60,684 bases of DNA from NCBI GenBank assembly GCA_020845775.1, contig JADLFC010000121.1:1-60684 (forward strand), written 5' to 3'. Positions 8,881 to 60,684 of this stretch are shown here, piece by piece; position 1 is the stretch's first letter, and every line of letters begins with the position of its first letter. The DNA is from Deltaproteobacteria bacterium (GTDB lineage: Bacteria; Bdellovibrionota_C; UBA2361; SZUA-149; JADLFC01). Below the pieces are notes generated by a model, which saw only the letters and a program-made list of their open reading frames with translations, was not told the origin of the DNA and did not search any database. A program made the position numbers and the translations under genes.

Positions 8881-8910
8881 GCAACACATAAAGATGCAGA
8901 CTTAATATTC

Positions 8911-11102: not shown

Positions 11103-11202
11103 TTCTCCATCCCAAATGCCTAAATGAGAGTATTTTTATGCCATGTTTTCAAACAGCCCACAAAAATCTCTCTTCACAATCATAAACTAATACACATATA
11201 CT

Positions 11203-12813: not shown

Positions 12814-12822
12814 ATAGCGAGC

Positions 12823-13587: not shown

Positions 13588-13757
13588 TTAATAACTAGTA
13601 AAAGAAAATATTGGTGACCACTTCTAGTTTACAACCCCAGAGGCACAAAGACAAAACGTTTTTAGGGGCATGTCTGAGAAAACACAGACTTAAAAACCTT
13701 GATGAATCGTGCCATATTCGTTTAGAATCATAACCGCAAGACAAACTAAGCTTATTT

Positions 13758-14381
13758 GTGCTAAAATTCCCTAGGTTCATTTTTATACCGCCAATGACGT
13801 TTCCGCATAAATACTATATTGTTCTTTTTGTCTCTTTACTTGCGCTGCCATCTTTAGAAGCTGAAGTCCAGCCTGAAGAACCTCGAAATGAGGGAGATGC
13901 ACTTTCGTGGCTTGAGCAGGAACTCACATGCGAGCAATTTAGGGAGCAAGTTCAACGCAGATTCGCTCAATTCGGGAAGATGTCAAAACTTCCACCCGAG
14001 AAAAAAAGCGAGTTGCGAATAATTATGGATGCGGCATGTGCCGAAAAATTTAGTCACTGTGGTTTTAAGAATTGCAAGAGCAGGTCTCTCCAAACTCAGA
14101 TCCTTTCGCCACCTATAGTTAATACTTCGTCGTCCGCAGTCTCTTCCTCCGCATTTGAAGAGAAGGCTGCAATAGATATCGAAAGCGAACTTAGCAAGGC
14201 AGAGACGCAACAAGAAAACACTAATAAAATTAGCCTGTCCCAGCTTAAACGCCTAGTCTTGCTAGAAAGCACAAGACATAAGGACAGTATCCGGCTACAA
14301 ATCGAAGAGGAAAAAGCCAAGACTTTATCCTGGAAGGCGTTTTCCTTGGATGCGATTAATGTTAACAACGAGAGACCATAG
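13758..14381 (+). CDS. Hypothetical secreted protein
   Basis: Signal-like N-terminus (YIVLFVSLLALPSLEAE). No recognisable domain. Confidence 0.5.
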   Translation: MLKFPRFIFIPPMTFPHKYYIVLFVSLLALPSLEAEVQPEEPRNEGDALSWLEQELTCEQFREQVQRRFAQFGKMSKLPPEKKSELRIIMDAACAEKFSHCGFKNCKSRSLQTQILSPPIVNTSSSAVSSSAFEEKAAIDIESELSKAETQQENTNKISLSQLKRLVLLESTRHKDSIRLQIEEEKAKTLSWKAFSLDAINVNNERP

Positions 14382-14428
14382 TTCCGTTACTTATTGAGCA
14401 AAGTTAATAACTCTAGAGGATTTATAAA

Positions 14429-15406
14429 ATGGGGGCTTATTCTTACCCACTCATGTGGATAGCCGCTGGCTTAGTTACGTTATTAGTTGGAGGAGAGTCT
14501 TTAGTGAGGGGGTCTTCGAAGCTGGCATTAGCGCTTGGGATAAATCCTCTAGTCATTGGGCTCACTGTGGTTGCCTTTGGGACGAGCTCACCGGAACTCG
14601 CCGTAAGCGTCTTAGCGGCCATAGATGGCAAAATGGACGTAGCGCTTGGCAACGTAGTTGGAAGCAATATTCTAAATGTGCTTTTAATTCTTGGACTTTC
14701 TGCAATAGTTACTCCACTAATTGTGGCAAGCCAGCTTATCAAGTTCGATGTTCCGGCAATGATAGCGGCAAGTTTACTGGTTTTAGCAATGGGACTCGAC
14801 GGAGCGATTGGGGTCTTAGATGGCGCTATTTTATTTTCCATGCTGATTGCTTATACGGCTTGGGTAATTAGGCTAAGTCGCAGGGAGAGCGAAAAGGTCA
14901 AGGCTGAATTTGAAGATAGTTTAGGCGTTGCTGATAACGGGAGTAAGGTAAAGATTTCCGTTCAGATCGGAACAATAGTCATTGGCCTGCTATTTCTCTG
15001 CTTAGGAGCTCGATGGCTTGTAAGTGGCGCGGTAGACATTGCTCGTCTGCTAGGAATAGACGAGCTAGTAATAGGGCTAACAATCGTTGCCGTCGGCACG
15101 TCCTTGCCAGAGTTAATTACATCAGTACTAGCAAGCATCCATCGCCAACCCGACATAGCGGTTGGCAATATAGTTGGCAGCAACATTTTTAACATTCTTG
15201 GCGTTTTGGGATTGTCGGGTCTAATTAGCGGCACTGGAGTTCTTGTGTCCCCGGAAGCCTTGTGGATTGACATTCCGGTTATGATTGGCGTAGCGGTCGT
15301 CACGCTACCGATAGTCTTTACCGACAGCACCATCTCACGCAAAGAAGGCACATTCCTCATTAGTGCTTTTGTTGTCTACACTACTTATCGAATTTTCTTT
15401 TCGTGA
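14429..15406 (+). CDS. Ca2+/cation antiporter (CaCA family, YrbG-like)
   Basis: 325 aa with two internally repeated halves. Each half carries the alpha-repeat signature: GTSSPELAVSV...GNVVGSNILNVLLILG and GTSLPELITSV...GNIVGSNIFNILGVLG. Confidence 0.87.
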   Translation: MGAYSYPLMWIAAGLVTLLVGGESLVRGSSKLALALGINPLVIGLTVVAFGTSSPELAVSVLAAIDGKMDVALGNVVGSNILNVLLILGLSAIVTPLIVASQLIKFDVPAMIAASLLVLAMGLDGAIGVLDGAILFSMLIAYTAWVIRLSRRESEKVKAEFEDSLGVADNGSKVKISVQIGTIVIGLLFLCLGARWLVSGAVDIARLLGIDELVIGLTIVAVGTSLPELITSVLASIHRQPDIAVGNIVGSNIFNILGVLGLSGLISGTGVLVSPEALWIDIPVMIGVAVVTLPIVFTDSTISRKEGTFLISAFVVYTTYRIFFS

Positions 15407-15548
15407 CCTATTGTTCCCCGCGCCAAAGTGAATAGCGGCAACTCGCAGCATGTCTTGCCCCGCAAGAATCATGCTAGCAGAATTAAGCCGAAAGGGGCCA
15501 GATGTTACTGATAGGTAAAGGGGCTTAAGCCTGTATCGAAAGGTGAGA

Positions 15549-16985
15549 TCAATAGCTATTAAGCTTCGCATCGCCGAGCACATATTTCACACTGTGGACT
15601 CGGACGGCATACCACTCGGCGTTTTGAACCGAGTCGGCTAGAACTAGCCTAAAGGACATGCTACTTCCTGGCTTTAGGACATTTGATGACTCTAAAGACT
15701 GCTCGCCATCTTCCGGCGCAACCGAACTAACAGCGCTATCCTTAAGAGAGCCTATCTCTAAAGCATTGACGATGTCGCCTTGCGCGGCAACGAGTGTTTT
15801 CTCCAGCGGTTGATTGTTGCCGTCAAACAACTTGGCCTCTATCTTAATTTCCGACATCGGCCTGTTTGTATTGTTTACCACCTCGCCTCGAATATTTAAC
15901 ACTTGCTGACCATCATCAAGAGTAGCTACCGTTGAACGCAGCTTCGCTAGTTCTAGCCCTGCTGGCGGTTGAGAACTGACACTGTCACTATCTAAGGAAA
16001 GCAAAACTGTAGCGAGAGCATCCACTCTCGAAATTAACAGTCCAGCAACTCCGAGAAGAATGCAAACGAGCAGCGGAAAGAAACATGCGAAATATAGAGG
16101 CCTATTGCTCAAAACCTCCTTTTCTTCACTAGCAATTGGTTGAGGCGATAAGTCCGGCTCGTCTTGCTCCGACATATCAAACGAATCAAATGAATCGAAA
16201 TCAGAAAATACCTGTATAGGGCCTCGCTCCTCAACATGAGTCTCTGAATGACTTGCCGGCATCACTAGCTCGTAGCTTTCAGAGCTATTACTCTTAAACT
16301 CTTTCTCCAGAGAAGCTAACTTCGACGGCGAAGATATTGTTTCCAAGGAAGAAACGACGTCACCTGCTGCCTTGTCTATCGCCGCGATGTCTGAGCGGCA
16401 GCAATCGGGCAAATCGACGTAAGGAGAATTTGTTTTGGTGAAAAAATCCGAAGGCGAATAAGCCTGAGGCCAATCTACTCGCCGATCAGCTTGATTTAGA
16501 TCATGTAAACGCTCCAAGGCCTCCTTTCTAAAGCGCAATACGCCGTTAGAAATTGCGTCTTCATTTAAGCGCTTGCGCAAGACCGAAGACATATCGATTT
16601 CTATCTTCTGCGTATCATCAGTAGGCCAATCAGCCGTAATGAGTGCCGAAGGGCCACTATCAAGCATATCGCCAAAAGTCTTTATCGGACTTTCATAGCA
16701 CTTACTCTCAGCAGAAGCTTCAGGAGCAAACATATCCAACTGCTGCCACTTGCTGCCACACTTTTCGACTGACGCCGGGACTCCCTCGGAAGCGCACACC
16801 GCGGAAATACTACGCGATGCAACTTTGCTATTCCCAAAATCTGCCGCGCATACATGCTCTAAACCAACGCTCTCAAAAAAAGTGTTATCGCAACGAGAAC
16901 AATGAAACTGCGGGCTAGTCAAACCAGCAAGCTGAGCATCGGAAACGCCAAACTTGGTCTTACACTTTGGACACTGAACGATCAT
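15549..16985 (-). CDS. MJ0042-type zinc-ribbon protein with TM and DUF3426-like C-terminal domain
   Basis: N-terminus MIVQCPKCKTKFGV...FHCSRCDNTF (two CxxC pairs), one TM (FACFFPLLVCILLGVAGLLI), and a beta-rich C-terminal domain (LNIRGEVVNNTNRPMSEIKIEAKLFDGNNQ). Confidence 0.7.
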   Translation of the reverse strand: MIVQCPKCKTKFGVSDAQLAGLTSPQFHCSRCDNTFFESVGLEHVCAADFGNSKVASRSISAVCASEGVPASVEKCGSKWQQLDMFAPEASAESKCYESPIKTFGDMLDSGPSALITADWPTDDTQKIEIDMSSVLRKRLNEDAISNGVLRFRKEALERLHDLNQADRRVDWPQAYSPSDFFTKTNSPYVDLPDCCRSDIAAIDKAAGDVVSSLETISSPSKLASLEKEFKSNSSESYELVMPASHSETHVEERGPIQVFSDFDSFDSFDMSEQDEPDLSPQPIASEEKEVLSNRPLYFACFFPLLVCILLGVAGLLISRVDALATVLLSLDSDSVSSQPPAGLELAKLRSTVATLDDGQQVLNIRGEVVNNTNRPMSEIKIEAKLFDGNNQPLEKTLVAAQGDIVNALEIGSLKDSAVSSVAPEDGEQSLESSNVLKPGSSMSFRLVLADSVQNAEWYAVRVHSVKYVLGDAKLNSY

Positions 16986-17332
16986 CTACCTTCTCCTCAC
17001 AAAAAACTATATATCCGCCATATCGTCGTCCTCCGATATGGCATTAAAATTCTTATTATCAGTGATCTGCTAAAAAACGTACCGAAACGACTTCTAGTAA
17101 GGGCCTAAGTACCACGTTTGCGTTATTGGCTCCATCTATATGTAACTTAAAGTGTTTAAGCCATGTCGAAAATGAACTTTTTCTTACTTAAACTCTATTC
17201 TGAACGCCTGAAGCTAGGCCTATCAGAGAGCGCCAACATACTCCATAGATATTTGGCGCAATAAAAAAAACGCCCTCTATTAATTTCTTTTCGTCATAAG
17301 ATCATTGTGTTAATTTCATTCTTCACAAGTTA

Positions 17333-18694
17333 TTGATTGCGATGCTATCCCTTCGCAACAAGCAGATTATCGCCCTTAATTCAGAGATACTAACTATGAC
17401 AACAATGCCATTGTTCGCCAATGCTCTTTCGCAACTCGATCTAGCACTAGCACATGTACAGTTATCGCCCGATACCATAGCTTTGCTAAAGCACCCGAAA
17501 GCTGTTCACATCTTTGCCATTCCAGTGCGCATGGACAATGGTGCTTTAAAATTTTTCACGGGCTATCGAGTTCTCTATGACGATTCTCGGGGCCCAGGCA
17601 AGGGCGGGATTCGATTTCACCCGGATGTAAATTTAGATGAAGTGCAGTCACTCGCGTTTTGGATGACATTTAAATGCGCTGCAGTTAACTTGCCATTTGG
17701 CGGAGCTAAGGGCGGAGTTCGCGTACACCCAAAAAACTTATCAAAGCTGGAACTCGAAAGGTTAAGTCGCGGTTATATCAATGCCGTAGCGGATGTAATC
17801 GGACCCGACAGAGATATCCCGGCGCCAGATGTCTACACAAATGAAACAATTATGGGTTGGATGTCGGACCAATATAAAATTATCAAGAGAGAACACATAC
17901 CAGCCGTCATAACCGGCAAACCCCTATCACTAGGAGGCTCTTTGGGGAGAGCAGACGCCACTGCGCGGGGCGGATTTTATGTGCTCGAATCGCTAAAAAA
18001 GGGGCTCGGCTTAGACAAACCCCATCCTACAATGGCTATTCAGGGTTTTGGCAATGCTGGGTATAATTTTGCTAAACTTGCTAGTGACGCAGGTTATAGA
18101 GTGGTCGCACTTAGCGACTCCAAGGGCGGCATTTACAAGAAGGACGGCTTAGATGCTCCAAGCGTTTATAAAATTAAACACGAGACTAACCAACTACAAG
18201 CAGTATATTGCAAGGGCTCGGTATGCGAAGTGCTCGAATACGAACACATTACGAATGAGCAACTTCTAGAGCTAGAGGTCGATGTCTTAGTCCCCGCAGC
18301 CTTAGAGGGTCAGGTTACTGCCAAGAATGCAAACAATATAAAGGCAAGTATTGTGCTTGAACTCGCCAATGGCCCCACGACGCCGGAGGCCGATAAGATT
18401 CTTTTTGATAAGGGCGTAGTGGTAATTCCAGACATCTTGGCTAACGCGGGAGGGGTAACTGTCAGCTACTACGAGTGGGTACAAAACAGGGCTGGCTATT
18501 ACTGGACGGCAAACGAGGTGTACTCTAAATTGGAAGTAGCGATGAATCAAAGCGCAAAATTAGTGGATAACATCCGCAAGGAGAAGCACTGCTCTATGCG
18601 AACGGCTGCCTATGTGCTAGCACTTAGGCGCGTTGCCTCGGCTATTGAAGAAAAGGGGACTCAGGAGTATTTTCTTAAGAATGGTCCAAGCTAA
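17333..18694 (+). CDS. gdhA: Glutamate dehydrogenase (Glu/Leu/Phe/Val dehydrogenase family)
   Basis: GYRVLYDDSRGPGKGGIRFHP and the catalytic-Lys region LPFGGAKGGV, plus a Rossmann GFGNAGY. The track start is TTG at 17333; the ATG at 17396 (MTTMPLF...) fits family N-termini better. Confidence 0.9.
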   Translation: MIAMLSLRNKQIIALNSEILTMTTMPLFANALSQLDLALAHVQLSPDTIALLKHPKAVHIFAIPVRMDNGALKFFTGYRVLYDDSRGPGKGGIRFHPDVNLDEVQSLAFWMTFKCAAVNLPFGGAKGGVRVHPKNLSKLELERLSRGYINAVADVIGPDRDIPAPDVYTNETIMGWMSDQYKIIKREHIPAVITGKPLSLGGSLGRADATARGGFYVLESLKKGLGLDKPHPTMAIQGFGNAGYNFAKLASDAGYRVVALSDSKGGIYKKDGLDAPSVYKIKHETNQLQAVYCKGSVCEVLEYEHITNEQLLELEVDVLVPAALEGQVTAKNANNIKASIVLELANGPTTPEADKILFDKGVVVIPDILANAGGVTVSYYEWVQNRAGYYWTANEVYSKLEVAMNQSAKLVDNIRKEKHCSMRTAAYVLALRRVASAIEEKGTQEYFLKNGPS

Positions 18695-18700
18695 AACACA

Positions 18701-19501
18701 GTGGAAAAAGATCTTAAGAACAGACTGAGAAACACTAACTTCATTTGTGGAAGAAATCCACTTATGGAGACGATTAAATCGAGCCCTCAAAATATTTGCG
18801 AGGTTTTTGCGACAAAGAGTTCTTTGGATTGGTTGCGAAAGACTTCTCTTAGCGATAAACTTGCTAAGTTAAAAAAGCCCATCCTTGAGGCTAGCAAAGA
18901 CGCGTTTGAGCAAGCAGTCCCAGGGTTAGTTCATCAGGGCGTAGTTACAACACTCAATCAGCGAAGACTTTTTAGCCTTAAGGAGCTAATACAGATTAGC
19001 GCTCGCTCAAATGCAAGCGGGATAATCGTAGCGCTGGACGAACTGCAAGACCCACAAAATATGGGTGCGGTACTTCGCGTTGCAGAATGTGGCGGTGTAG
19101 ATGGAGTAATAGGAACGAAGCGCCGCAGTGTTGGCATAACCCCAGCTGTGGCAAAGGCTAGTGCTGGTGCAAGTGAAACTATGCCAATCTCGCTCGTTAC
19201 AAATCTAAACGAAGCGTTAAAGGAACTAAAAAATAATGGTTTCTGGATCATAGGAACGGATGCGGGCAAGCAAGCCAATAATCTCTTTGAAACAAAGCTT
19301 CCCTCGGAACCAATAGTCCTTGTGTTTGGTTCCGAAGGAAAGGGATTAAGGCGATTAGTAAAGGAACATTGCGATATTATGCTAAAGATACCCCTCATGG
19401 GTAAAATTGAATCGCTAAACGTGAGCCAAGCCGCTTCAATATTACTGTTTGAAGCGCTTAGACAAAGAGCATTCTCAAGTGTTAAGGCAAAAATGAAATG
19501 A
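18701..19501 (+). CDS. rlmB: SpoU/TrmH-family RNA 2'-O-methyltransferase (RlmB-like)
   Basis: 266 aa. N-terminal substrate-binding domain (GRNPLMETIKS) and SPOUT motifs (LDELQDPQNMGAVLRVAECGG, VFGSEGKGLR, IPLMGKIESLNVSQAA). GTG start. Confidence 0.8.
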   Translation: MEKDLKNRLRNTNFICGRNPLMETIKSSPQNICEVFATKSSLDWLRKTSLSDKLAKLKKPILEASKDAFEQAVPGLVHQGVVTTLNQRRLFSLKELIQISARSNASGIIVALDELQDPQNMGAVLRVAECGGVDGVIGTKRRSVGITPAVAKASAGASETMPISLVTNLNEALKELKNNGFWIIGTDAGKQANNLFETKLPSEPIVLVFGSEGKGLRRLVKEHCDIMLKIPLMGKIESLNVSQAASILLFEALRQRAFSSVKAKMK

Positions 19502-20502
19502 GCAAAACGATAGCTAAGAGAGTATTTTCGGGGGTGCAGCCGTCTGGAACACAGGTTCACATTGGAAATTATTTCGGAGCGATGAAGCATTTTGTCGAAC
19601 TTGCAAAGGAACACGAGACAATTATTTGCATAGTTGACCTACATGCGCTTACTTCGGTAAAGAGCGCTTCCGATCTTAGATCTCACTCCGCCTCTCTTGC
19701 GGCCGCTTATTTAGCAATCGGCATTGATCCAAGGCAGGCCATTATCTTTCGCCAATCGGATGTGCCGGAAGTTTGCGAACTCGCGTGGTATTTAGCCTGT
19801 CATTTTCCACTGGGATTACTCGAGAGAGCACATGCAGTAAAAGATGCCAAGGCAAAAAACATTAACATTAATTCGGGTGTAATGTTTTACCCGATATTAA
19901 TGGCGGCAGATATACTATTGTACAAAGCAAGTCTCGTCCCTGTGGGTGCCGATCAAAAGCAACACGTGGAGATGACGCGAGATGTGGCCGAGAGATTTAA
20001 TTTGCAGTTTGGTTCCATATTCCCTGTCCCGGAGGCACTCATAACCGAGGAGACCGGTGTAATTAGGGGAATAGATGGTCGAAAAATGTCAAAGAGCTAT
20101 GACAACTTCATAGGCTTATTTGAAGAACCTTCTGCTATGCGAAAAAAGGTAATGCGAATAGTTACGGACTCAAAGAGCGTAGAGGACGTTAAGGATCCCG
20201 AGCAATGCAACGTATTTCAAATGTTCAAACTTTTCGCTAGCAAGGAAGCTTGCGAAAACCTCGCTAGACAATATCGAGAAGGTGGCATGGGATACGGAGT
20301 GGCAAAAAAGGAGCTCTTTGACATTATGCAGCTTGCCCTTTCGCCGTTTCGAGAAAAGTACAATCACTGGGTATCACAAAAAGACGAGCTTGAAGATATT
20401 CTCCTAGACGGCGCTAAGCGCGCGCGAAAAATAGCGACACAAACAATCTCTGCGGTTAGACTAACCCTAGGAACCGGCTCACTCAAGGCAAGTAAAACAT
20501 GA
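19498..20502 (+). CDS. trpS: Tryptophan--tRNA ligase
   Basis: 334 aa. A class I HIGH-type motif (VHIGNY), KMSKS (GRKMSKSYDN) and GADQKQH. The 4-nt ATGA overlap with rlmB suggests coupling. Confidence 0.92.
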   Translation: MSKTIAKRVFSGVQPSGTQVHIGNYFGAMKHFVELAKEHETIICIVDLHALTSVKSASDLRSHSASLAAAYLAIGIDPRQAIIFRQSDVPEVCELAWYLACHFPLGLLERAHAVKDAKAKNININSGVMFYPILMAADILLYKASLVPVGADQKQHVEMTRDVAERFNLQFGSIFPVPEALITEETGVIRGIDGRKMSKSYDNFIGLFEEPSAMRKKVMRIVTDSKSVEDVKDPEQCNVFQMFKLFASKEACENLARQYREGGMGYGVAKKELFDIMQLALSPFREKYNHWVSQKDELEDILLDGAKRARKIATQTISAVRLTLGTGSLKASKT

Positions 20503-20617
20503 GGGTTTTTATGTAGTTATGTAGCTTATTGAAGCAAAAGCTGCTCCTTGGCTGATACTAATATATACGGGCGTAAAACTAAGAAGATTGTTTTGCCATT
20601 GTTTATGTTTTTTTTAG

Positions 20618-20962
20618 ATGAGGATAATTGCTATGCCAGGCACCTTAGTCGATAAATTACTAGAATCCTTTGATAAATTGGATAACTGCATAACAGAAAC
20701 CAGAGACGTCCTAGGCGCAAAGCAGGATGTCCCAAAAGACGTAATGGCGAGAATCGATTATTACGCTGAAATAGTTTCTAAGCAGAGAAAGTTGGCGTCT
20801 GCGCTACGCGAACACGTTAGCAGCGCAAATTGGGACGAGGTAACTAGACATGTTCGCTTGATTAACGGTTACTCGACAATGATTCACGAGGACGCACGAG
20901 ATATTCTTGCTAGTGTAGTCACAGATTCAGGCGCAGATAAAGAAAACGCCCTGCTAAGTTAG
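20618..20962 (+). CDS. Hypothetical protein
   Basis: 114-aa helical ORF with no recognisable motif. Confidence 0.45.
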   Translation: MRIIAMPGTLVDKLLESFDKLDNCITETRDVLGAKQDVPKDVMARIDYYAEIVSKQRKLASALREHVSSANWDEVTRHVRLINGYSTMIHEDARDILASVVTDSGADKENALLS

Positions 20963-20983
20963 ACCAAGATAGAGAGCTCGCAC

Positions 20984-21021
20984 TTACTACGCGGCCAGCC
21001 GAACAGTCGGCCGCGTAGTAA
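20984..21021. terminator. 13-bp perfect hairpin between convergent genes (non-canonical terminator candidate)
   Basis: ttactacgcggcc / ggccgcgtagtaa around a 12-nt loop. An A8 run follows on the + strand, so on the minus strand the U run precedes the stem. Neither strand shows the canonical stem-then-U tract. Confidence 0.35.
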
Positions 21022-21027
21022 AAAAAA

Positions 21028-22410
21028 TCAAACCTCAACTGTCTGCATATGAGTAGCAGGCGCCGCGTCCCAGTTAAATTTCTTTTTTAGTGCATTAGCA
21101 AAAGCACGACTTGCTTCGGGTTCACCGTGAATTATCCTAACCTGCTTTGGCGTTCCCTTGGATTCGGCTAGCCATTTTAACAACTCATCTCTATCGGCGT
21201 GGGCAGAAAGTCCGGATATAGTGTCTACTTGTGCCCTAATGGGAATATCTTCTCCAAAAATCCTAATATACTTTGCTCCCGACTGGATTATACTTCCGCG
21301 TGAACCTCGTGCTTGGTATCCCACAAAAAGCACCGTAGTATCCTCTGAGTGAATCCAGTTCTTTAAATGATGCAAGATGCGGCCTCCAGTAGCCATACCG
21401 CTAGCAGAAATAATGATCCTTGGGCCCTTTAAATGATTTAGCGCCATGGAATCCTGCACAGCTCTACAAAAGGAAGTCTTTGCAGTTAATAGCGGAATCT
21501 TTCCCAACTCCATTAGCTTTGCGCTCTCTTCATCAAAATCATTCCGAAAGTTGTAATAAATTTTAGTAGCATCTACTGCCATGGGCGAATCGACGTAGAC
21601 CGGGATAATGGGTATTTTCCCGTCGCGCTCAAGTTCGGCTAGGTAGTAGAGTAAAGTTTGTGTACGCCCTACGGCAAATGCGGGAATAATTAGTGGCCCC
21701 CTCCTGACTACAGCAGCTTTCACTATTTGCGCTAACTCGTCTGCGACGTTCCCTTCGCCATGTATGCGGTTTCCATACGTTGACTCGCAGAGCAATAAAT
21801 CGCCAAAATCAACCGGACTAGGGGGTGGTAGCAATGGCGTATCGTAGCGTCCAATATCGCCTGAAAAAGTAATTCGCTTCTTAAAAATATCGACAGTCAA
21901 CGACACCGAACCTAAAATATGACCGGCGCAGCGAGGCTCCACTGATACGTTGGGAAGAATCTCTGTTTGTTTATCGCGCTCAATAATCTTAAAAAGTTTT
22001 AGCGTCTCTTCGACATCCTTTTCGGTATATAGTGGCTTTGCAGGATGATGCTTGGAAGTCCCAGACTTGTTGGCATAAAATGCCTCTTCCTCCTGAAGAT
22101 GCGCACTGTCGGGCAAGAGCAGTTTTAGTAGCTCAAAGGTTGCCGCCGTGCAATATATGGGCCCCGAATAACCTCGCCTCACAACTAATGGGAGATAACC
22201 ACTGTGGTCGATATGTGCATGAGTTAGAACTATCGCCGATAGCGACAAAGGGTCAAACGGCGGCTCCGCCCAGTTGCGCAAGCGAAGCTCCTTGGTTCCC
22301 TGAAACAATCCGCAGTCAAATAGTATTTTCCTACTGCCAGCCTCGACCAAGAACTTCGACCCAGTAACGGTTCCCGCTGCGCCTAAAAACGTAAGTTTAA
22401 TAGATGTCAC
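21028..22410 (-). CDS. MBL-fold metallo-hydrolase with beta-CASP / RNA-specificity domain
   Basis: 460 aa. HAHIDHSG motif, downstream beta-CASP region and C-terminal SAHAD. GTG start with a GGAGA SD 6 nt upstream. Confidence 0.85.
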   Translation of the reverse strand: MTSIKLTFLGAAGTVTGSKFLVEAGSRKILFDCGLFQGTKELRLRNWAEPPFDPLSLSAIVLTHAHIDHSGYLPLVVRRGYSGPIYCTAATFELLKLLLPDSAHLQEEEAFYANKSGTSKHHPAKPLYTEKDVEETLKLFKIIERDKQTEILPNVSVEPRCAGHILGSVSLTVDIFKKRITFSGDIGRYDTPLLPPPSPVDFGDLLLCESTYGNRIHGEGNVADELAQIVKAAVVRRGPLIIPAFAVGRTQTLLYYLAELERDGKIPIIPVYVDSPMAVDATKIYYNFRNDFDEESAKLMELGKIPLLTAKTSFCRAVQDSMALNHLKGPRIIISASGMATGGRILHHLKNWIHSEDTTVLFVGYQARGSRGSIIQSGAKYIRIFGEDIPIRAQVDTISGLSAHADRDELLKWLAESKGTPKQVRIIHGEPEASRAFANALKKKFNWDAAPATHMQTVEV

Positions 22411-22426
22411 AAAATTCTCCGCACTA

Positions 22427-22549
22427 GACCGTTTCCAAAAAGTAAGTTAAATATTTTACTTTTTGGAAACGGTATTTGTTGTTTATTGGCAAGTGCTTGC
22501 GCACTTGCTGTTTATACCATTTACAAAAATCCTTTTTGTAAATGGTATA
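22427..22549 (+). repeat. Triple-palindrome intergenic repeat, copy 3
   Basis: Same three palindromes as the other copies. The left terminus reads tagaccg instead of tataccg. It begins 17 nt from the start codon of the MBL-fold gene and ends ...aaatggtataat. Confidence 0.92.
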
Positions 22550-22671
22550 ATATTCCTCTGTGTTTTGATGGGCATTTAAGAAAAACACGCCCCTTAAGCA
22601 ATTTACTTCAGACAATTCTTACAAATGCCGACCTAAAGTCAAGGATCACTAAGGACTGTCAGTAACCTAGC

Positions 22672-23079
22672 ATGGACGATTCGAGTAACATTACACGGAT
22701 ATTATTCGTCGATAAAGACGAAAGATCTTTTCAAATATGGCAGTGTATTGCAGCAGCCATACAGAACCTGCCTCCAATTGAATTGATCCATGCAAGCAAT
22801 GCTTCACATGGATTGCTAATGATTGGCCAGATAAAACCAGATTGCATTGTCCTTAACTTTGGCGACGAAGATCATTCAGAACTCGACACTTTTCTAAAAA
22901 ATCTACTAGAAACACATCCCCCCATAATCGTGCAAGCAGAAGAAGAATTCTTCGATACACGAAGAGAAAATGTTTTCTTTGTCGAACAAAGTGGCTCGCT
23001 CGAAAGCATTCACAAGACACTATTAGCCGCCATTGAAAGTACTAACAACTCGTCGCGCAAAAATTCTAGCTGTCACTAG
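22672..23079 (+). CDS. CheY-like receiver-domain protein lacking the phospho-acceptor Asp (pseudo-receiver)
   Basis: 135 aa. ILFVDKDE acidic pocket, then KPDCIVLNF where canonical receivers have kPDlvllD; the residue is Asn62, codon aac at 22855..22857. Confidence 0.55.
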   Translation: MDDSSNITRILFVDKDERSFQIWQCIAAAIQNLPPIELIHASNASHGLLMIGQIKPDCIVLNFGDEDHSELDTFLKNLLETHPPIIVQAEEEFFDTRRENVFFVEQSGSLESIHKTLLAAIESTNNSSRKNSSCH

Positions 23080-23335
23080 CCACTTCTTTGGAGATTTCGT
23101 CCGTAGACTCATCGCTAAAAGCGGAAAATTCCGACGTTATCTCAGTTAGCTGCACCTTAGTGTGACGCAAAACATCCTTACATATTTTAAAAGCAGCTAA
23201 AGCATCCTTCATCCTAGGCACTAACTGATCTATAGTAACCTTATTATCCTGTAGTTCCTGGGATAGAGATTCGAGTTTATTAAAATTTTCCTCAAACTTA
23301 TTTTTGTTAACTTCACTAGCCATCGTCTTCTCCAC
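23066..23335 (-). CDS. xseB: Exodeoxyribonuclease VII small subunit
   Basis: 89 aa. FEENFNKLESLSQELQDNKVTIDQLVPRMKDALAAFKICKDVL matches the XseB helical-hairpin pattern. It lies immediately downstream of xseA with a TAGTG overlap; an ATG 4 codons in is an alternative start. Confidence 0.85.
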   Translation of the reverse strand: MEKTMASEVNKNKFEENFNKLESLSQELQDNKVTIDQLVPRMKDALAAFKICKDVLRHTKVQLTEITSEFSAFSDESTDEISKEVASDS

Positions 23336-25089
23336 TACTTAATGATTGCTGACCTATCGGTATCATGAAACTGCAATTCGATTTCCTGCTCTTTTAGAAG
23401 CTCGCTTCCCGACAAAACATACTTGCCATTGCCCCTTTCTCTAACCAGTACAAAACCCCTTTTTAACTGAACATCGGGCGACATGTCCCTAAGAGATTTT
23501 TCATGTTTCTCGAGCGAGAGTTCTCCAAATCGCAAACATTGCAACGCTAGACGAGGTAAATCCAGTGCTTTTACAAGGCGCAACTTGCCAGTCTCAAAAA
23601 TAAACATGTATCCACGCACCAAACCTCTATTTGTCATAGCCATCTGCTTAAACCTATAAGTCATCAGCATGTTGCTCGATAGTTGAATGTCTCCCAAAAC
23701 TTTCTTAAGCGAACGCCTCTCGCGCACAAATATGCTAGAGCTCAGTGCCGGCATAGGTCGCGTAATATCGATTAAGCGCCGCGATATATTAATTTGCAAA
23801 CCGCGCGCGAGAGTCGGCAAACTCGCTCTGTATAACTCTAAAACTTCCGTTCGCGACATTATTAACCGTTTACACATACGCATAATTTGCGAAACTGCAC
23901 CTCCCAAACTCGCCTCCGCAAGTTCGGCGACATGAACAACCGTCTTAACCATTTGCGAAATACTTTCGCGACAGCGACAGCGAAGATCTTCCACGATGCT
24001 AGCAAAAAAAGAACCGACATCTTTGGGCACACCCTCGCCTCTATAGCTTACATCCTGAACCGAGGACTGATCCTCTTGGTGTCCGATGGCCGACACAACT
24101 GGTACCTCGCAAAGACAAACCTGCTTTGCTAACTCATAATCATTAAAAATTGCGAGTTCAGCCGGACTACCACCACCGCGAAATATTAAAATCGCATCTA
24201 TTCCAGGCAACGTGCCCAAAACGCGCAAACCATTGATGATTTGCTCCTTAGCTCCGGCACCTTGAACATTGGCCTTGTACCAAAAAAGCTCAAAACCAAA
24301 ACGTGCCGTTTCTAAAGCGGCAAGAAAATCATTTATTACAGTCCCGCCAGAACTTGTAATAATGCCAAGTTTTGTTGGAAGAATGCTCAACTTGCATTTC
24401 TTATTAAGCCCAAATAGACCCTCCTTCTTTAGCCTCTCATTAGTCTTATCGCGCTCCGCTGCAATTTTTCCAATCGTATACTCAACTACCACGCTACAGA
24501 TGGATAACGATATGGCACCCTTCCTAGGGTTTAAGCCAACTATCGCCTCAAACATAACATCGAGTTCAGGTTCGAGCTTAAACCCTCGCTCAAAAAGAGG
24601 CTTGCAAACGCGTTCTATATCTTCTTGCCAGACGAAACAACTTACGTGATCCGAAGGGTTCTCTAAATCCACTAGCTCCAAATACAAATGCTTGGGCTGA
24701 GTGACCTTAGCTATGACGCCTTTAACTAAAATGCGATTGGGGAAGGCCAGTAGAATTACATCTCGAATCTTAGCTATTAGCTCAGAGACGGTTATTGCCT
24801 GGCTAAGCAAGGGAGAAGAGCTTGCCGCAGCTGGAGCTTCGCCATCGCACTCATCAGAATTCTCACACTCTTTAGAAGGCTCTCCGACTTCCTCTATGAT
24901 GACATCGGGGAATATTTTTTCTAAATCGCCAATTGAGACACTGGTTAGGGACGCAACCCAAACTTTTTTCTCTCCCACCCAGCGAGCTGCCGGAAGCTTT
25001 TTAATGGCATCCTTGGCACGAAAAGTCCCTGGGCCAGAAAAAGTAACTGTTTGCTTCGACCAATCGAGAGTGGCCTTAAGATTTTCCAC
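23335..25089 (-). CDS. xseA: Exodeoxyribonuclease VII large subunit with ~95-aa N-terminal extension
   Basis: The OB-fold start ITVSELIAKIRDVILLAFPNRILVKGVIAKV appears only at about residue 97. The catalytic core contains GIITSSGGTVINDF and IFRGGGS, followed by a long helical C-terminus. Confidence 0.85.
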   Translation of the reverse strand: MENLKATLDWSKQTVTFSGPGTFRAKDAIKKLPAARWVGEKKVWVASLTSVSIGDLEKIFPDVIIEEVGEPSKECENSDECDGEAPAAASSSPLLSQAITVSELIAKIRDVILLAFPNRILVKGVIAKVTQPKHLYLELVDLENPSDHVSCFVWQEDIERVCKPLFERGFKLEPELDVMFEAIVGLNPRKGAISLSICSVVVEYTIGKIAAERDKTNERLKKEGLFGLNKKCKLSILPTKLGIITSSGGTVINDFLAALETARFGFELFWYKANVQGAGAKEQIINGLRVLGTLPGIDAILIFRGGGSPAELAIFNDYELAKQVCLCEVPVVSAIGHQEDQSSVQDVSYRGEGVPKDVGSFFASIVEDLRCRCRESISQMVKTVVHVAELAEASLGGAVSQIMRMCKRLIMSRTEVLELYRASLPTLARGLQINISRRLIDITRPMPALSSSIFVRERRSLKKVLGDIQLSSNMLMTYRFKQMAMTNRGLVRGYMFIFETGKLRLVKALDLPRLALQCLRFGELSLEKHEKSLRDMSPDVQLKRGFVLVRERGNGKYVLSGSELLKEQEIELQFHDTDRSAIIK

Positions 25090-51934: not shown

Positions 51935-53653
51935 ATGTATCGTTTTACTAGAAATTGCACTAGCCTCTTTTGTATACTGTTTCCAAAAAGTAAGTTAAAT
52001 ATTTTACTTTTTGGAAACAGTATTTGTTGTTTATTGGCAAGTGCTTACGCACTTGCTGTTTATAGCATTTACAAAAATCCTTTTTGTAAATGCTATAAAT
52101 TTTGCTGCCTTGCGCTAGTGGTTCTTGTTTGCCCGTCACTTGCACTAGCTGGCAAAGGAGAAATAACAGCCGTAGAAACTAGCATCGATCTCGGTGCAAA
52201 CGGCGATGCAACAGTAATGTATTACGTAAGCTGGAGGGTTTTATCAGGCGAATTTCACGGTTTTTACTTTAGCGGAAACGACCGCCTCGAAATCAGTGGC
52301 TTCCTCGATCACAGTTATGCTCTCGACTCATTTGGGAAAAGGCACAAGTTAGATATTTCGTGGGAGGGCCGCGACAAGTGGGATATCGTACTTGCTAACG
52401 GCGAGGGTGTTTCATCGGGCGATGTTCATTTCTTTCTCTTCTTTCGCAGTAATTTTAGCCGAGCGGGGTATTTAGCCCACACTAAGGCGGGGGACAAGGA
52501 CTTAGCGGTGTTTAATTGGGCTCCCGTCGAATGGGATGAAGTTGCTCCAAAGAGCCATTATACCCTACGCATTATATTTCCACATCAAGTATCAAGTGGA
52601 GTTAATTTGCGTTCTTATGTAGATAACAGGCAATTACTCCTAACCGAACCCTGGGTAAATGAGAACTACGCGATTGACTTTTTTAGGGGTGGAACAAATA
52701 ACGATGGGCTGGGAGTTCTCTTTCACAAGGAGAATCCGGGCAATCACTTTCACATGAGAGTCCAATTTTACCTGCCGTATGAGTGGTTTAATTTTCCACA
52801 AACATATGCCTCAAAACTCACTTCTGAGTTACCTCTGCATAACAAAGTTGCATTAGGAGTTGGATTTGCATTAGTTGGCATGGGATTTATTTTTGTATTT
52901 CTTGGCAAGCAACACTCCCTATTAGCAGCCCACAAGGGTTTAAATGACATCCGTTGGGAGAACATAGATTGGACCCCACCAAAACTCGAGCTATCGACAT
53001 TTCGCATAAAGGGGAAAGTGTGCAAGGATCTCTCTCCCCTCGAAGCAGCGTTCTACCTGGAAATTCCTTTGAAGCGCATTTTAAGCGGGATGCTTAGCTC
53101 CCTTGAGGAAGAAGGGTTTTTGAAAGTAATCTCCCAGTCGCCTCTTAAAGTGCAAACACTTAGGAGCAGTTATGAAGGCACTGGAACTGAGTACAGCGGA
53201 TACGAGCAATATTTCTTAAACACTCTACACGACGGAGACTTTTCGCAGGACGAGCTAGAGTCTCTGATGAATACCATCATCAAAAACATTCAAAAGAAAG
53301 CTTGGGACTGCGACATAGAAGCTACGAAAGCCTATTATGGCACTTTAGTGCACGATGCCATCGGAAAGAACACTGCTCAGGATATATTCCTTCAAGATGA
53401 GGCATGGCACCAGTGGTACCACCGATCCTCTTACCGACGAGATTTGTCGCGCGATCGAGCTAATCCATACCGCTATGAGCATGTTATGCCGGTTACCGTG
53501 GATCATTTGCTACAAGGGGTCGGAGTAAATGCCGATATGACTGCTTGTCACGATGCCTGTCATTCGGCTTGTCACTCCGCTTGCCATTCCGCCTGCCATT
53601 CAGCCTGCCACTCGGCTTGCCATTCAGCTTGCGTAAGTGGAGGTTCACATTGA
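51935..53653 (+). CDS. DUF2207-like single-pass membrane protein ending in a Cys-His tetrapeptide repeat, ACHD-(ACHS)x6-AC
   Basis: Signal-like KFCCLALVVLVCPSLALA|GKG. The ecto-domain GEITAVETSIDLGANGDATVMYYVSWRVLSGEFHGFYF and the post-TM DLSPLEAAFYLEIPLKRILSGMLSSLEEEGFLKVIS resemble DUF2207. TM at about residues 305-324. The C-terminal 38 aa are MTACHDACHSACHSACHSACHSACHSACHSACVSGGSH. The real start is uncertain because codons 13-54 are repeat copy 4. Confidence 0.7.
   Translation: MYRFTRNCTSLFCILFPKSKLNILLFGNSICCLLASAYALAVYSIYKNPFCKCYKFCCLALVVLVCPSLALAGKGEITAVETSIDLGANGDATVMYYVSWRVLSGEFHGFYFSGNDRLEISGFLDHSYALDSFGKRHKLDISWEGRDKWDIVLANGEGVSSGDVHFFLFFRSNFSRAGYLAHTKAGDKDLAVFNWAPVEWDEVAPKSHYTLRIIFPHQVSSGVNLRSYVDNRQLLLTEPWVNENYAIDFFRGGTNNDGLGVLFHKENPGNHFHMRVQFYLPYEWFNFPQTYASKLTSELPLHNKVALGVGFALVGMGFIFVFLGKQHSLLAAHKGLNDIRWENIDWTPPKLELSTFRIKGKVCKDLSPLEAAFYLEIPLKRILSGMLSSLEEEGFLKVISQSPLKVQTLRSSYEGTGTEYSGYEQYFLNTLHDGDFSQDELESLMNTIIKNIQKKAWDCDIEATKAYYGTLVHDAIGKNTAQDIFLQDEAWHQWYHRSSYRRDLSRDRANPYRYEHVMPVTVDHLLQGVGVNADMTACHDACHSACHSACHSACHSACHSACHSACVSGGSH
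51973..52097 (+). repeat. Triple-palindrome intergenic repeat, copy 4
   Basis: Differs from copy 5 only by a compensatory pair in hairpin A (tatacTg.../...cAgtat). It shares the tatagc...gctata variant of hairpin C with copy 5. It lies inside the 5' end of the long track ORF 51935..53653. Confidence 0.92.
53543..53632 (+). repeat. 12-nt tandem coding repeat (7.5 units) encoding A-C-H-(D/S)
   Basis: gct tgt cac gat / gcc tgt cat tcg / gct tgt cac tcc / gct tgc cat tcc / gcc tgc cat tca / gcc tgc cac tcg / gct tgc cat tca / gct tgc. Apart from the first unit's Asp codon, the units differ only at synonymous third positions. Confidence 0.95.
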
Positions 53654-53665
53654 GGTGACAGTTCT

Positions 53666-55051
53666 ATGCTGACGAGAGTTTTTAAACGGTTTACTAAGCC
53701 TTCTAAGCAGAACCCTAACCTTGACGAAGTGATTAGCGGCATTAACCTTTCTTGGGTCGATGAGTTCATAGAAAATGTTCGGCCATACGTTTTCGTTAGA
53801 ACAGAAGATAACATTTTAATAAAGCGCCCCAACAACGCGGTAAAGTTAAATCCATCGGGCGCTAAATTTTTGAAATTCCTATTGGAGGGCCATAAGCTAC
53901 ATGAACTCCTTAGGGCGGTTGATTCCGATGTAGCTAAATTAAAACAGCTTGAAGAATTCCTGCGAGCCGTTAGATTGCATTTGGAAAACAAGCTGGATCC
54001 TCTTGTCCATATGCCCGCAGTGGAGATCCTTCCTTTCGACATGAGTTTTAGTGAGTATCCAGTTTTGTCAGAAATCGCGCTTACGTATCGCTGTAACCTT
54101 CGATGTAAATTCTGCTACGCTGGCTGCAACTGCACGACTAATCCAGTAGGCAGCAAGCATGAACTCAGTTCGGCAAACATAAAGAAGGTTATTCATAAAC
54201 TCTTTAACGATGCAAAAGTGCCGTCAGTTAGTTTTACAGGCGGAGAGCCTACGCTCGTGAGCGAGCTTTTCGACTACATCTCCTACGCAAAAACGCTTGG
54301 AATGAGAGTAAACCTAATTACAAATGGCTCTCGCATTACAGAAAAATACGCTCAAGCCCTAAAGGAAAGCGGGTTGGACTCGGCTCAAGTAAGCGTTGAA
54401 GGAGTCAATGCTGATACTCACAATGAAATTGTGCAGGCGAGCTCATTTGCTAAATCCGTTGCTGCAGTGCGCCATTTAAGGGAAGCTGGGATATTTACGC
54501 ATTCCAATACAACTATCAATCGAATAAACTTAGCAGAATGCCTAGAGTTCCCGCGTTTCGCAAGAGACATCTTAGGTTGCAATCGCTTTAGTATGAATCT
54601 CATGATCCCCACCGGAAGCGGTGAGCTTAACGATGAGATGGTAGTGCCGTATTCTGAGATAGGGCCATACATAGAGCGCATTCGGGACGAAAGCGAAAAA
54701 GTTGGCGTGGAATTCATGTGGTACTCGCCGGTTCCCATGTGTATGTTTAACTCGATTGTAAATGGACTTGGGAACAAGGGTTGCAGTGCCTGCGACGGGC
54801 TTATTTCTATCGGCGCTAATGGAGCACTTTTACCCTGCGCTTCATATGACGAAAATTTGGGGGATTTTCTTTCCGAAGATTTTTCGACCTTGTGGAAGTC
54901 ATCTAGATCAGCGCAATTTCGCAAGAAAGATTTAGCGCACGACGCTTGCAAAAAGTGCGAGCACTTTCACATATGTAACGGCGCATGTCCCCTTTACTGG
55001 CGGAATCAAGGATACGAGGAGCTCACAAAAACTTTAGGAGACACTAATTGA
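53666..55051 (+). CDS. Radical SAM / SPASM-domain peptide-maturase-like enzyme with N-terminal RRE-like extension
   Basis: CNLRCKFC (Cx3Cx2C, residues 143-150, nt 54092..54115), FTGGEPTL, and additional Cys ligands (GCSACDG, LLPCASY). The C-terminal CKKCEHFHICNGAC is the SPASM Cx2Cx5Cx3C motif. GAGG SD 8 nt upstream of the ATG, 12 nt after the stop of the repeat-tailed gene. Confidence 0.9.
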   Translation: MLTRVFKRFTKPSKQNPNLDEVISGINLSWVDEFIENVRPYVFVRTEDNILIKRPNNAVKLNPSGAKFLKFLLEGHKLHELLRAVDSDVAKLKQLEEFLRAVRLHLENKLDPLVHMPAVEILPFDMSFSEYPVLSEIALTYRCNLRCKFCYAGCNCTTNPVGSKHELSSANIKKVIHKLFNDAKVPSVSFTGGEPTLVSELFDYISYAKTLGMRVNLITNGSRITEKYAQALKESGLDSAQVSVEGVNADTHNEIVQASSFAKSVAAVRHLREAGIFTHSNTTINRINLAECLEFPRFARDILGCNRFSMNLMIPTGSGELNDEMVVPYSEIGPYIERIRDESEKVGVEFMWYSPVPMCMFNSIVNGLGNKGCSACDGLISIGANGALLPCASYDENLGDFLSEDFSTLWKSSRSAQFRKKDLAHDACKKCEHFHICNGACPLYWRNQGYEELTKTLGDTN

Positions 55052-60559: not shown

Positions 60560-60684
60560 TATACCGTTTCCAAAAAGTAAGTTAAATATTTTACTTTTTG
60601 GAAACGGTATTTGTTGTTTATTGGCAAGTGCTTACGCACTTGCTGTTTATAGCATTTACAAAAATCCTTTTTGTAAATGCTATA
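60560..60684 (+). repeat. Triple-palindrome intergenic repeat, copy 5 (ends at window edge)
   Basis: Full 125 nt, 123/125 identical to copy 4. Same tatagc...gctata hairpin C variant. Confidence 0.92.

Follow-up and report, generated by a model that had tools for sequence, protein, structure and literature searches.

Five copies of a 125-nt repeat, 95–100% identical by repeat search, alignment and covariance model R1, lie in the stretch of DNA analysed here (the window, 60,684 nt), and three matched double substitutions in their hairpin stems cannot be attributed to independent mutation (about 1e-7). According to the alignments, both arms of a palindrome change together in evolution. The host is an uncultured, deep-branching member of the Bdellovibrionota, represented by a metagenome-assembled genome (MAG) from wastewater and sludge, and the repeat, which is non-coding, dispersed and lineage-restricted, forms a family that appears to be undescribed. 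On balance, the element is probably a selfish, non-autonomous repeat of the MITE/REPIN kind that has dispersed to high copy number, its arms being kept paired by fold-back at the DNA level. Covariation is the usual gold standard for functional RNA structure, and this family is a warning case, in which a high-copy palindromic repeat gives an overwhelming "compensatory" signal while other evidence points to maintenance of the palindromes at the DNA level.

Anatomy and location of the repeat

The element has a G+C content of 29%, in a genome of 45% G+C, and each of the five copies is predicted to fold into three hairpins, A, B and C. Its ends read TATACC...GGTATA, with TA at both ends of every copy, although this TA is also part of the conserved palindrome. 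A terminal repeat of ~18–21 nt occurs four times per element, arranged as two perfect palindromes that correspond to hairpins A and C, and a T-rich linker and the short, G+C-rich hairpin B sit between these two. The terminal inverted repeats are identical at 16 of 18 positions (5' end, TATACCGTTTCCAAAAAG; reverse complement of the 3' end, TATACCATTTACAAAAAG). The arms of hairpin C are a sequence variant of those of hairpin A (ATACCATTTACAAAAA versus ATACCGTTTCCAAAAA): each set is perfectly self-complementary, there are 2 mismatches in 16 positions between the two sets, and the half-sites are spaced by 10 nt in A and by 3 nt in C. The only ORFs internal to the element are 41-codon read-through frames, and no transposase gene is found inside it. 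The copies (c1–c5), and the parts of c4, are located as follows.

3443–3567, + strand: c1, between a tRNA-Met gene (3309–3384, −) and the rpoD stop codon (3662, −)
8756–8880, − strand: c2, between a DUF4397 gene (start 8620, −) and lpxD (ATG 8911, +)
22425–22549, + strand: c3, with the start of a beta-CASP RNase gene (22410, −) 14 nt away and an ORF at 22672 (+) that begins 122 nt beyond the copy
51935–51972, + strand: start of the ORF that reads through c4, with the ATG and first 13 codons (MYRFTRNCTSLFC) by translation; probably the ancestral start of the gene downstream of c4
51973–52097, + strand: c4, the copy named in the preliminary description (repeat search, alignment and covariance model R1, 149.8 bits)
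51974–52023, + strand: hairpin A of c4, with 20 Watson-Crick pairs (51974–51993 with 52004–52023) and a 10-nt loop, followed by the T-rich tail TTTGTTGTTTATT
T51978:A52019, + strand: compensated pair in hairpin A of c4 (fold predictions and per-pair counts)
52037–52056, + strand: hairpin B of c4, GCAAGTGC-TTAC-GCACTTGC, whose 8 G+C-rich pairs do not vary within the window
52061–52097, + strand: hairpin C of c4 (17 pairs closed by a 3-nt loop); the G52065:C52093 variant is common to c4 and c5
60560–60684, + strand: c5, with hairpin C in the G:C form, as in c4

All five copies are intergenic or at the 5' edge of a gene, in mixed orientation relative to the neighbouring genes, and three of them are placed upstream of genes or in the gap that separates a divergent pair. 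The window is a complete NCBI contig, and the last base of c5 is its end.

Searches of Rfam gave no family over the element: only two tRNAs reach threshold in the window, and the best sub-threshold matches over the element score ≤25 bits against cut-offs of 47–245. The element had no match in phage and plasmid collections, and IMG/VR, queried with the hairpin A core, returned 0 matches. The window (60.7 kb) encodes no transposase, RAYT/Y1 included, and no precise "skip" (empty-site) joints were present in eight DNA runs. The rpoD loci of RpoD relatives (L147–L150), which reach about 70% identity at most, do not carry the element, so that they offer no orthologous empty site. Paralogues within the window were of no use for finding other contigs of the genome. 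Hairpin B alone (GGCAAGTGCNNNNGCACTTGC) was too loose as a pattern for genome contigs, as all 120 loci were chance matches and 0 had the linker, and a metagenome-contig search with the 21-mer TTGTTGTTTATTGGCAAGTGC gave 17 matches, all in one unrelated conserved gene. Inspection of the sequence also led us to reject a sigma-54 promoter (TGGCAA-N-TTGC) in hairpin B, the spacing of which is one base short and which would be possible solely in the rare TTGC variant, while an integron attC site, a CRISPR repeat and a consistent sigma-70 promoter were unsupported by spacing, genomic context and scans.

Paired substitutions in the stems

In the alignments, C6>T in hairpin A of c4 (51978) is matched by G47>A (52019). 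Pair 93:121 of hairpin C is C:G in c1–c3 and G:C in c4 and c5 (52065/52093; 60652/60680), and pair 91:123 is C:G in c1 (3533/3565) and T:A in the other copies. The preliminary description had reported both the double change in hairpin A of c4 and three fully paired states of hairpin C, and it was correct on both. Over the five copies, the 45 pairs contain 3 double-sided changes, 0 single-sided changes and 2 unpaired cells, and the slid-register controls gave 0 double changes in all; each of the 225 pair cells is Watson-Crick or broken, and none is G.U. When the 10 observed substitutions were placed at random on the observed lineages, 3 compensated pairs arose in 1 of 5,000,000 trials, with an analytic estimate of about 4e-8.

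The further claim of a match for every stem change does not hold to the letter: 3 stem events are matched and 2 are not, the latter both at helix ends. Likewise, the changes said to be confined to loops or the very terminus do include that in the B loop, which is TTAC but TTGC in c2 and c3; however, A104>T in c1 (3546) breaks A104:T110, the second pair from the loop, T3>G in c3 (22427) disrupts the last but one pair of the helix, and c1 has an extra change, G86>C (3528), in the linker. Copy c1 carries the private compensated pair C3533:G3565, the unmatched T3546 and the linker C3528, c3 carries the unmatched G22427 and the G in the B loop, and c2 equals the consensus apart from that same G.

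The covariation agrees with three local hairpins, for which the predicted RNA folds have energies of −58 to −61 kcal/mol (z = −12 to −15), and the fold is no worse on the opposite strand or as DNA. A long-range alternative, in which the outer terminal repeats pair with each other, was rejected: it has 0 covarying pairs, and the substitutions seen in the copies disrupt it. The stems are not more conserved than the rest of the element (5 events over 45 pairs versus 2 over 35 unpaired nucleotides). The covariation rests on five full copies, the linkage between arms in the several hundred others being unreadable from k=31 contigs. The earlier statement that base pairing is what is maintained stands in part, as regards the coupling of the arms, which lies far past chance and fits the local hairpins. 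Paired change of this sort is typical of palindromic repeats and is not in itself evidence of a functional RNA.

Reading frames, copy number and population variants

None of the five copies interrupts frame +1 of the element, and c4 and one copy outside the window lie in frame inside ORFs, so that the earlier remark that a coding frame is not what is maintained needs qualification. Copy c4 is in frame in the signal-peptide region of its ORF, and homologues of this ORF lack about 36–43 residues exactly at the peptide encoded by the element. For c4 to stay in frame the net insert has to be 123 nt, and on the assumption of a TA duplication ...TTT TGT AAA TTT... and an intact signal peptide are regained; the frame of c4 thus implies a duplication of 2 nt (mod 3), consistent with a 2-bp TA duplication. 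In the protein P0269, which contains the non-window copy, phmmer places the element peptide between unrelated coding flanks, and this copy implies an unmatched T122>C. The read-through peptides of frames +1 and −0 had no relatives in two protein searches.

In six metagenomes, the summed contig depth over the element is about 300–1000x that of its flanks, which corresponds to roughly 300–1000 copy-equivalents per genome. The repeat may occupy a few percent of a little-known Bdellovibrionota genome, and it sometimes lands in frame in genes. It also fragments short-read assemblies of the host: Logan contigs stop within the element, and c5 is where the MAG contig ends. In these k=31 contigs, alignment ends are clipped and C arms cross-align on A arms, and internal sites alone are informative.

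Independent Logan assemblies contain the variant states at sensible depths. About 3–6 copies carry the A47 state of c4 and about 5% carry G93, and the G state of the B loop has roughly the depth of two copies, presumably just c2 and c3. Because the C3533 state of c1 occurs at single-copy depth, in three runs, its compensated pair is private. Hairpin B has the population variants T70>C and A79G. Some contigs lack the linker and hairpin B, the depth of hairpin A is about 2x that of B and C, and tandem dimers are joined as GG-TATA-CC, a junction that would suit a TA duplication. Variants in the 3' arm of hairpin A, at positions 41, 42, 46 and 49, have no listed partners in the 5' arm and are either uncompensated subfamilies, or cross-alignments of C arms, or the result of clipping. 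At the RNA level, unique flanking sequence runs into the element in a metatranscriptome contig of 183 nt, from which it follows that some copies are transcribed.

Explanations for the pairing of the arms

Fold-back at the DNA level, whether by templated correction, by hairpin-dependent mobilisation or by both, seems to us more likely than a selected RNA because the 225 pair cells are Watson-Crick or broken, the fold is strand-symmetric, the orientation of the copies is mixed and one compensated pair is private. The C:G to G:C compensation at pair 93:121 is, in addition, a transversion without a wobble route. Under this explanation the element would insert at TA and duplicate it, mostly between genes, and would occasionally be tolerated inside genes because one frame is open. 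It would have been amplified to hundreds of nearly identical copies, a number at which selection on any single copy is weak. In single-stranded DNA, at a replication fork or in a transposition intermediate, each palindrome may fold back on itself, and a new mismatch would then be resolved by template-switch synthesis or mismatch repair, the mutation being erased or its complement being copied onto the other arm. If only copies with intact hairpins or ends multiplied further, this would reinforce the pattern of paired changes. Effects on the host would be incidental, for example termination by hairpin A and the U-tract when read on the element + strand. The preliminary description had itself raised templated change within the palindrome, without function, as a caveat; this is now preferred to a selected RNA, with hairpin-dependent mobilisation as the alternative. 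The two unmatched stem changes still present in the window count against it. The full copy set would give hundreds of replicate hairpins with which to weigh templated against selected compensation.

The element is small and transposase-free and has terminal inverted repeats and many dispersed copies, as expected of a MITE, and neither a cognate IS or transposase nor movement, in the form of insertion polymorphism, was found in the window and the eight DNA runs. No empty site turned up either, and mobility is thus inferred. A DDE transposase acting on double-stranded terminal repeats would itself need no hairpins, a point that counts against the selfish-repeat explanation. A more specific version, which we think unlikely, is that the element represents a new kind of hairpin-dependent mobile DNA, with palindromic ends regenerated from one arm in a single-stranded fold-back intermediate of transposition or replication, insertion at TA and in-frame tolerance. 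If true, "compensation" would be built into the copying of the element, and the several hundred copies would be a genome-wide record of the rate of palindrome-templated correction.

The evidence bears differently on the other explanations. A REP/REPIN- or IS200/IS605-type element, whose folded hairpins are read by an HUH tyrosine transposase (RAYT or TnpA) and whose paired changes reflect selection among copies rather than templated mutation, is a possible but rather doubtful alternative. The hairpins are perfect and strand-symmetric, there are variant subfamilies (the G:C form of hairpin C in about 5% of copies, A47 in about 3–6 copies), and for REPINs both compensatory changes and hairpin-dependent mobilisation have been published (PMC3116915; PMC8266576). 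However, IS200/IS605 and REP make no target duplication, whereas the frame of c4 and the TA...TA ends favour one of 2 bp; the consensus has no GTAG-type 5' motif, the window has no RAYT/Y1 transposase gene, and the private compensated pair of c1 is not readily explained by selection among proliferating lineages. It is a good deal less probable that the host selects the element as a structured RNA, be it a terminator, a stabiliser of mRNA 3' or 5' ends or a processing site for RNase III/E, with compensatory evolution keeping the RNA paired in each copy. The very stable folds (−58 to −61 kcal/mol, z about −12 to −15) would suit such a role, as would hairpin A with TTTGTTGTTT, which scores as an intrinsic terminator on the element + strand in 4 of the 4 copies scanned (c1–c4), the position of c4 directly after flgL in the terminating orientation, and the orientation of 4 of the 5 copies, such that plausible read-through crosses the non-terminating strand. 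The RNA-seq contig that links unique flank to the element points the same way, the hairpin B variants A79G alone (T.G) and T70C with A79G (C:G) fit a wobble route, and RNase III and RNase E process Correia and ERIC repeats (PMC10969869). Against this, there is 0 G.U in the 225 pair cells and one C:G to G:C transversion, the structure is as good on the opposite strand and as DNA, and the stems are no better conserved than the unpaired parts. Orientation is mixed, with three copies between divergent genes or upstream of genes; only c4 has the terminator-like hairpin A and T-rich tail downstream of a co-directional gene, the other copies being upstream of or antisense to genes, and the terminator of c4 would fall inside a coding region. 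Moreover, with roughly 300–1000 copies, per-copy selection would be too weak for double substitutions in place at about 2–5% divergence, and Rfam has no matching family.

That the palindromes are sites for a dimeric DNA-binding protein (nucleoid, regulator or partition-type), with symmetric changes serving to keep both half-sites alike, seems very improbable. The ~18-nt motif does occur four times as two perfect inverted pairs, and many copies lie in promoter regions, but a change of both half-sites alters the recognition sequence and so would not be favoured, the half-site spacing differs between A (10 nt) and C (3 nt), three different positions have changed in different copies, and several hundred 125-nt sites would far outnumber any regulon or family of nucleoid sites known at this length. 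Chance, or an assembly artefact, can hardly be upheld: the contig does come from a MAG and such repeats do break assemblies, yet three exact complementary pairs have a probability of about 1e-7, the variant states recur in independent runs at sensible depths, the paired sites are 28–41 nt apart, well inside one read, and misassembly would not create complementarity.

Similar patterns are known elsewhere. In Pseudomonas fluorescens SBW25, compensatory changes are "common" in REPIN hairpins (Bertels & Rainey 2011, PMC3116915). Our element resembles REPINs and REPs in being a short, non-coding, extragenic palindrome with hundreds of copies and hairpins predicted in single-stranded DNA or mRNA, in its high within-genome homogeneity and in its tandem or clustered forms. 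REPs are imperfect palindromes of 20–40 nt with a conserved, GTAG-like tetranucleotide on the 5' side. Our element differs from them in having neither a GTAG nor a CTAC motif and no RAYT gene within 60 kb, in consisting of two perfect palindromes and a G+C-rich third hairpin instead of one long hairpin of two REPs, and in that its ends and the frame of c4 point to a TA duplication, which REP and IS200/IS605 do not make. Quasipalindrome template switching produces perfect compensatory changes in one step, of any substitution type, as well as inverted loops (Monttinen & Loytynoja 2022, PMC8794818; see also PMC8604942). The process (Ripley model) is compatible with both the C:G to G:C swap and c1's private pair, and run X8 contained one possible inverted A loop; it differs from the other systems in being a mutational process, not an element family, and one whose operation here we infer.

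Correia elements of Neisseria and RUP of Streptococcus pneumoniae are TA-duplicating MITEs mobilised by the IS630/Tc1-mariner type of transposase. Their general properties as MITEs have been reviewed (PMC10969869), and they are like our element in their length of about 100–200 nt, their inverted repeats that start with TATA..., their TA ends, their high copy number and mainly intergenic position near gene starts, and their co-transcription and hairpin RNA, which in Correia is cut by RNase III at the terminal repeats (PMC10969869). In contrast to these, the terminal repeats of our element are paired with an adjacent inverted copy and the covariation is not end-to-end, scans of c1–c4 gave no consistent outward promoter, and there is neither sequence similarity nor a cognate IS. 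The likeness to ERIC and the pneumococcal BOX lies in a length of about 125 nt with an imperfect palindrome or a modular A-B-C arrangement, in stable structures and in variants that lack modules, here the contigs without linker and hairpin B. BOX itself is a modular structure. Here the copy number is much higher, homogeneity among the copies is much greater, and the sequence, with its perfect stems, has no relation to either (ERIC, BOX and RNase E processing are covered in PMC10969869).

Finally, the Rickettsia palindromic elements are open-frame palindromic repeats found in frame inside genes (PMC10969869), as are c4 and the copy in P0269. They differ in that most copies here are intergenic, the host belongs to the Bdellovibrionota and is not an obligate intracellular alphaproteobacterium, and the sequences are not related; the in-frame repeat that c4 places in an otherwise conserved protein is a shared property, not a sign of common descent.

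The element and its paired substitutions

We found five copies (c1 to c5) of a 125-nt palindromic element in the window, and these were also the window's only matches to a covariance model made from them.

3443-3567, + strand, 125-nt repeat copy c1
8756-8880, - strand, 125-nt repeat copy c2
22425-22549, + strand, 125-nt repeat copy c3
51973-52097, + strand, 125-nt repeat copy c4
60560-60684, + strand, 125-nt repeat copy c5

Every copy is bounded by TA...TA, and the element consensus has a G+C content of 29%, compared with 45% for the window. The same fold of three hairpins (A, B and C) was predicted for all copies, on either strand and as RNA or DNA, with energies of -57 to -61 kcal/mol for RNA and -44 kcal/mol for DNA, and z-scores of -12 to -15 against shuffled sequences. 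Hairpin A (20 pairs, 10-nt loop) is followed by a T-rich linker, hairpin B corresponds to GCAAGTGC-TTAC-GCACTTGC, and hairpin C consists of 17 pairs closing a 3-nt loop. The arms of A and C, ATACCGTTTCCAAAAAG and ATACCATTTACAAAAA, are variants of a common motif and thus give the element terminal inverted repeats, which agree at 16 of 18 positions and each of which also pairs with its neighbouring inverted copy. Self-complementarity is perfect within A and within C, but two positions distinguish one hairpin from the other; these are two older matched differences. Rfam contains no family matching the element, no match was found in plasmid, phage and IMG/VR collections, and the nearest available relatives have no copy near rpoD.

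All changes listed in the preliminary description of this DNA are present in the alignment of the five copies. Using element numbering (1-125), C6>T is paired with G47>A in hairpin A of c4, C93>G with G121>C in hairpin C of c4 and c5, and T91>C with A123>G in hairpin C of c1. Counted per pair over the five copies, 3 of the 45 pairs were changed on both sides and none on one side only, with two unpaired cells. The earlier statement that every stem change is matched therefore holds for these three events, but not for two unmatched changes, both at helix ends: A104>T in c1, previously assigned to the loop, disrupts the second pair counted from the loop, and T3>G in c3, previously assigned to the very terminus, the second pair counted from the helix end. 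A linker change in c1, G86>C, is additional to that list. When the partner was moved by 1-3 columns, no double changes were seen, and when the ten observed substitutions were placed randomly on the lineages carrying them, three exact complementary pairs arose in one of 5,000,000 trials (analytic estimate ~4e-8). The covariation agrees with local hairpins A, B and C; end-to-end pairing of the terminal repeats had zero covariation and is disrupted by the observed variants. As the variant states were recovered in independent Logan assemblies from several metagenomes, an assembly artefact was ruled out.

Host, abundance and variants

The window is a complete NCBI contig of 60,684 nt with ordinary chromosomal genes, including murG, tRNA-Met, rpoD, dnaG, lpxD, bamD, gdh, trpS and xseA, as well as propionyl/acetyl-CoA carboxylase genes, ctaA/ctaB and a flagellar flgF-flgL cluster. 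For RpoD, identity to the best relatives reaches only ~70%, those with names being Bdellovibrionales, Bdellovibrionota or Oligoflexia MAGs, and the sequence is found in wastewater, activated-sludge and bioreactor metagenomes. Judging from summed Logan contig depth, the element is present at ~300-1000x the depth of unique flanks (~10,000-24,000 versus ~11 in metagenome run X1, 5,000-14,000 versus 15-19 in X4 and ~600-900 versus 2-3 in X8), an abundance with which five copies per 60 kb is consistent. Logan contigs of the host (L121-L124, L142-L146) break off inside c1, c2 and c4, and the final base of c5 is also that of the MAG contig, showing that the element limits assembly of the host genome.

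The variant states mark lineages of copies. Metagenome depth places the G:C state of hairpin C in ~5% of copies and the A47 state of c4 in ~3-6 copies, while the C91 state of c1 occurs at single-copy depth and is thus private to c1. The G state of the B loop, undetected in X1, has a depth of about two copies, presumably c2 and c3 only. This TTGC variant (position 75; window 8806 and 22499) is common to c2 and c3, which lie 13.6 kb apart in opposite orientation, and suggests that they are sister copies that arose through local re-insertion or conversion.

Structural variants were read from Logan contigs of seven metagenome runs (X1, X2, X4, X5, X8, X9 and X11) aligned to the copies. Found at other loci, they include head-to-tail tandem dimers joined as GG-TATA-CC, with the TATA common to both units, forms lacking the linker and hairpin B (38-41 nt skipped), forms with a 9-12-nt deletion and strand-switch joints, one of them with a possible inverted A loop. 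Depth over hairpin A is ~2x that over B and C, and in X11 far above that over C, which hints at solo-A units. For subfamily variants located in the 3' arm of hairpin A, no partners were listed, an absence that clipping and cross-alignment render uninformative.

Placement among genes and in-frame copies

Orientation of the copies relative to adjoining genes is variable. Copy c1 is located between tRNA-Met and the stop codon of rpoD, c2 and c3 between divergent genes (at 30 nt from the ATG of lpxD and 14 nt from the start of a beta-CASP RNase gene, respectively), c4 after flgL, and c5 101 nt upstream of a glycosyltransferase gene. At the rpoD loci of the nearest relatives (L147-L150, ~70% RpoD identity), dnaG-rpoD and lpxD-bamD are kept nearby (compared with positions 3662-9984 of the window), and the extra genes found there between these pairs (tatA, tatC, HU and a response regulator) are absent between dnaG and lpxD in the window, where c2 occupies that junction. 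A match to a sigma-70-like promoter (TTGACT-16-AAGAAT, preceded by TG; 22615-22642, - strand) is located on the right of c3 and directed through it toward the beta-CASP RNase gene; if used, it would place c3 in the 5' UTR of that gene, in the non-terminating orientation.

An ORF starting at ATG 51935 crosses c4 in the element's sole fully open + strand frame; positions 51935-52140 comprise the ATG and 13 codons, 41 element-coded residues, a typical signal-peptide core and an ALA|GKG site. Homologues of this ORF start 40-55 residues later, one of them likewise with 'MY', and when aligned they show a gap of 36-43 residues that coincides precisely with the peptide encoded by the element. Removal of c4 with a 2-bp TA duplication (net insert 123 nt, 41 codons) restores ...TTT TGT AAA TTT... 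and a normal 31-residue signal peptide ending in ALA|GKG, whereas a 126-nt insert without duplication gives a TGA stop codon. A 2-bp TA target duplication is therefore supported by this one case, c4, but not proven. The c4 protein may carry a 73-residue presequence or start at a TTG inside the element.

A 572-residue protein matching no Pfam family ends in the Cys/His repeat (ACHS)x7, whose coding sequence is a tandem repeat of 12 nt (53555-53653), and its gene is directly followed by that of a radical-SAM/SPASM enzyme (53666-55051). The two may be substrate and maturase, or the tail may be metal-binding.

Outside the window, P0269, an 83-residue partial ORF from a public protein library, contains the element frame +1 peptide IPFPKSKLNILLFGNGICCLLASAYALAVYTIYKNPFCKWH flanked by unrelated coding-looking sequence, and represents a second in-frame copy.

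Coupling of the arms and relation to known repeats

The two arms of the hairpins are coupled, and we infer that the cause lies in the palindromes themselves. These would fold back in single-stranded DNA, where mismatches would be settled by templated synthesis or repair, with selection for intact hairpins or ends among multiplying copies as an added contribution. In REPIN hairpins, compensatory changes are described as 'common' (PMC3116915), and template switching at replication in inverted repeats produces compensatory changes in a single step, homogenised arms and inverted spacers (PMC8794818; PMC8604942). The templated reading is tempered by P0269, which implies T122>C with A92 unchanged, an uncompensated stem change.

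Selection for an RNA structure would also maintain pairing, and several observations speak for some relevance of RNA. In each of the four copies scanned (c1-c4), hairpin A with its T-tract matches the pattern of a terminator when the element's + strand is read; four of the five copies are so oriented that likely read-through transcription crosses the opposite, non-terminating strand; and population variants of hairpin B are consistent with a change through T.G to a final C:G. However, G.U occurs in 0 of 225 pair cells, the compensations include a C:G to G:C transversion, the structure is strand-symmetric, orientation relative to genes is mixed, stems are no better conserved than unpaired parts, and c4 would place a terminator-like hairpin within a coding region. 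Moreover, selection per copy must be weak among several hundred copies, yet the c1 pair is found in that copy only. In a metatranscriptome (X28; other RNA runs were empty), a 183-nt contig of depth ~4 joins 78 nt of unique flank, absent from the window, to element positions 1-105, so at least one copy outside the window seems to be co-transcribed, on either strand, though the contig may also stem from DNA carry-over.

Templated change within folded DNA, our preferred reading, concerns an element that works like a bacterial MITE or REPIN and constitutes a new family within a known kind. No transposase gene was found in the window and no empty-site allele in eight DNA runs, and mobility, to which the anatomy points, is therefore something we infer. 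The element has the size, terminal repeats and copy number of a MITE, but differs from classical REPs in sequence and architecture; like Rickettsia palindromic elements it is tolerated in frame, and like BOX and ERIC repeats it is modular.
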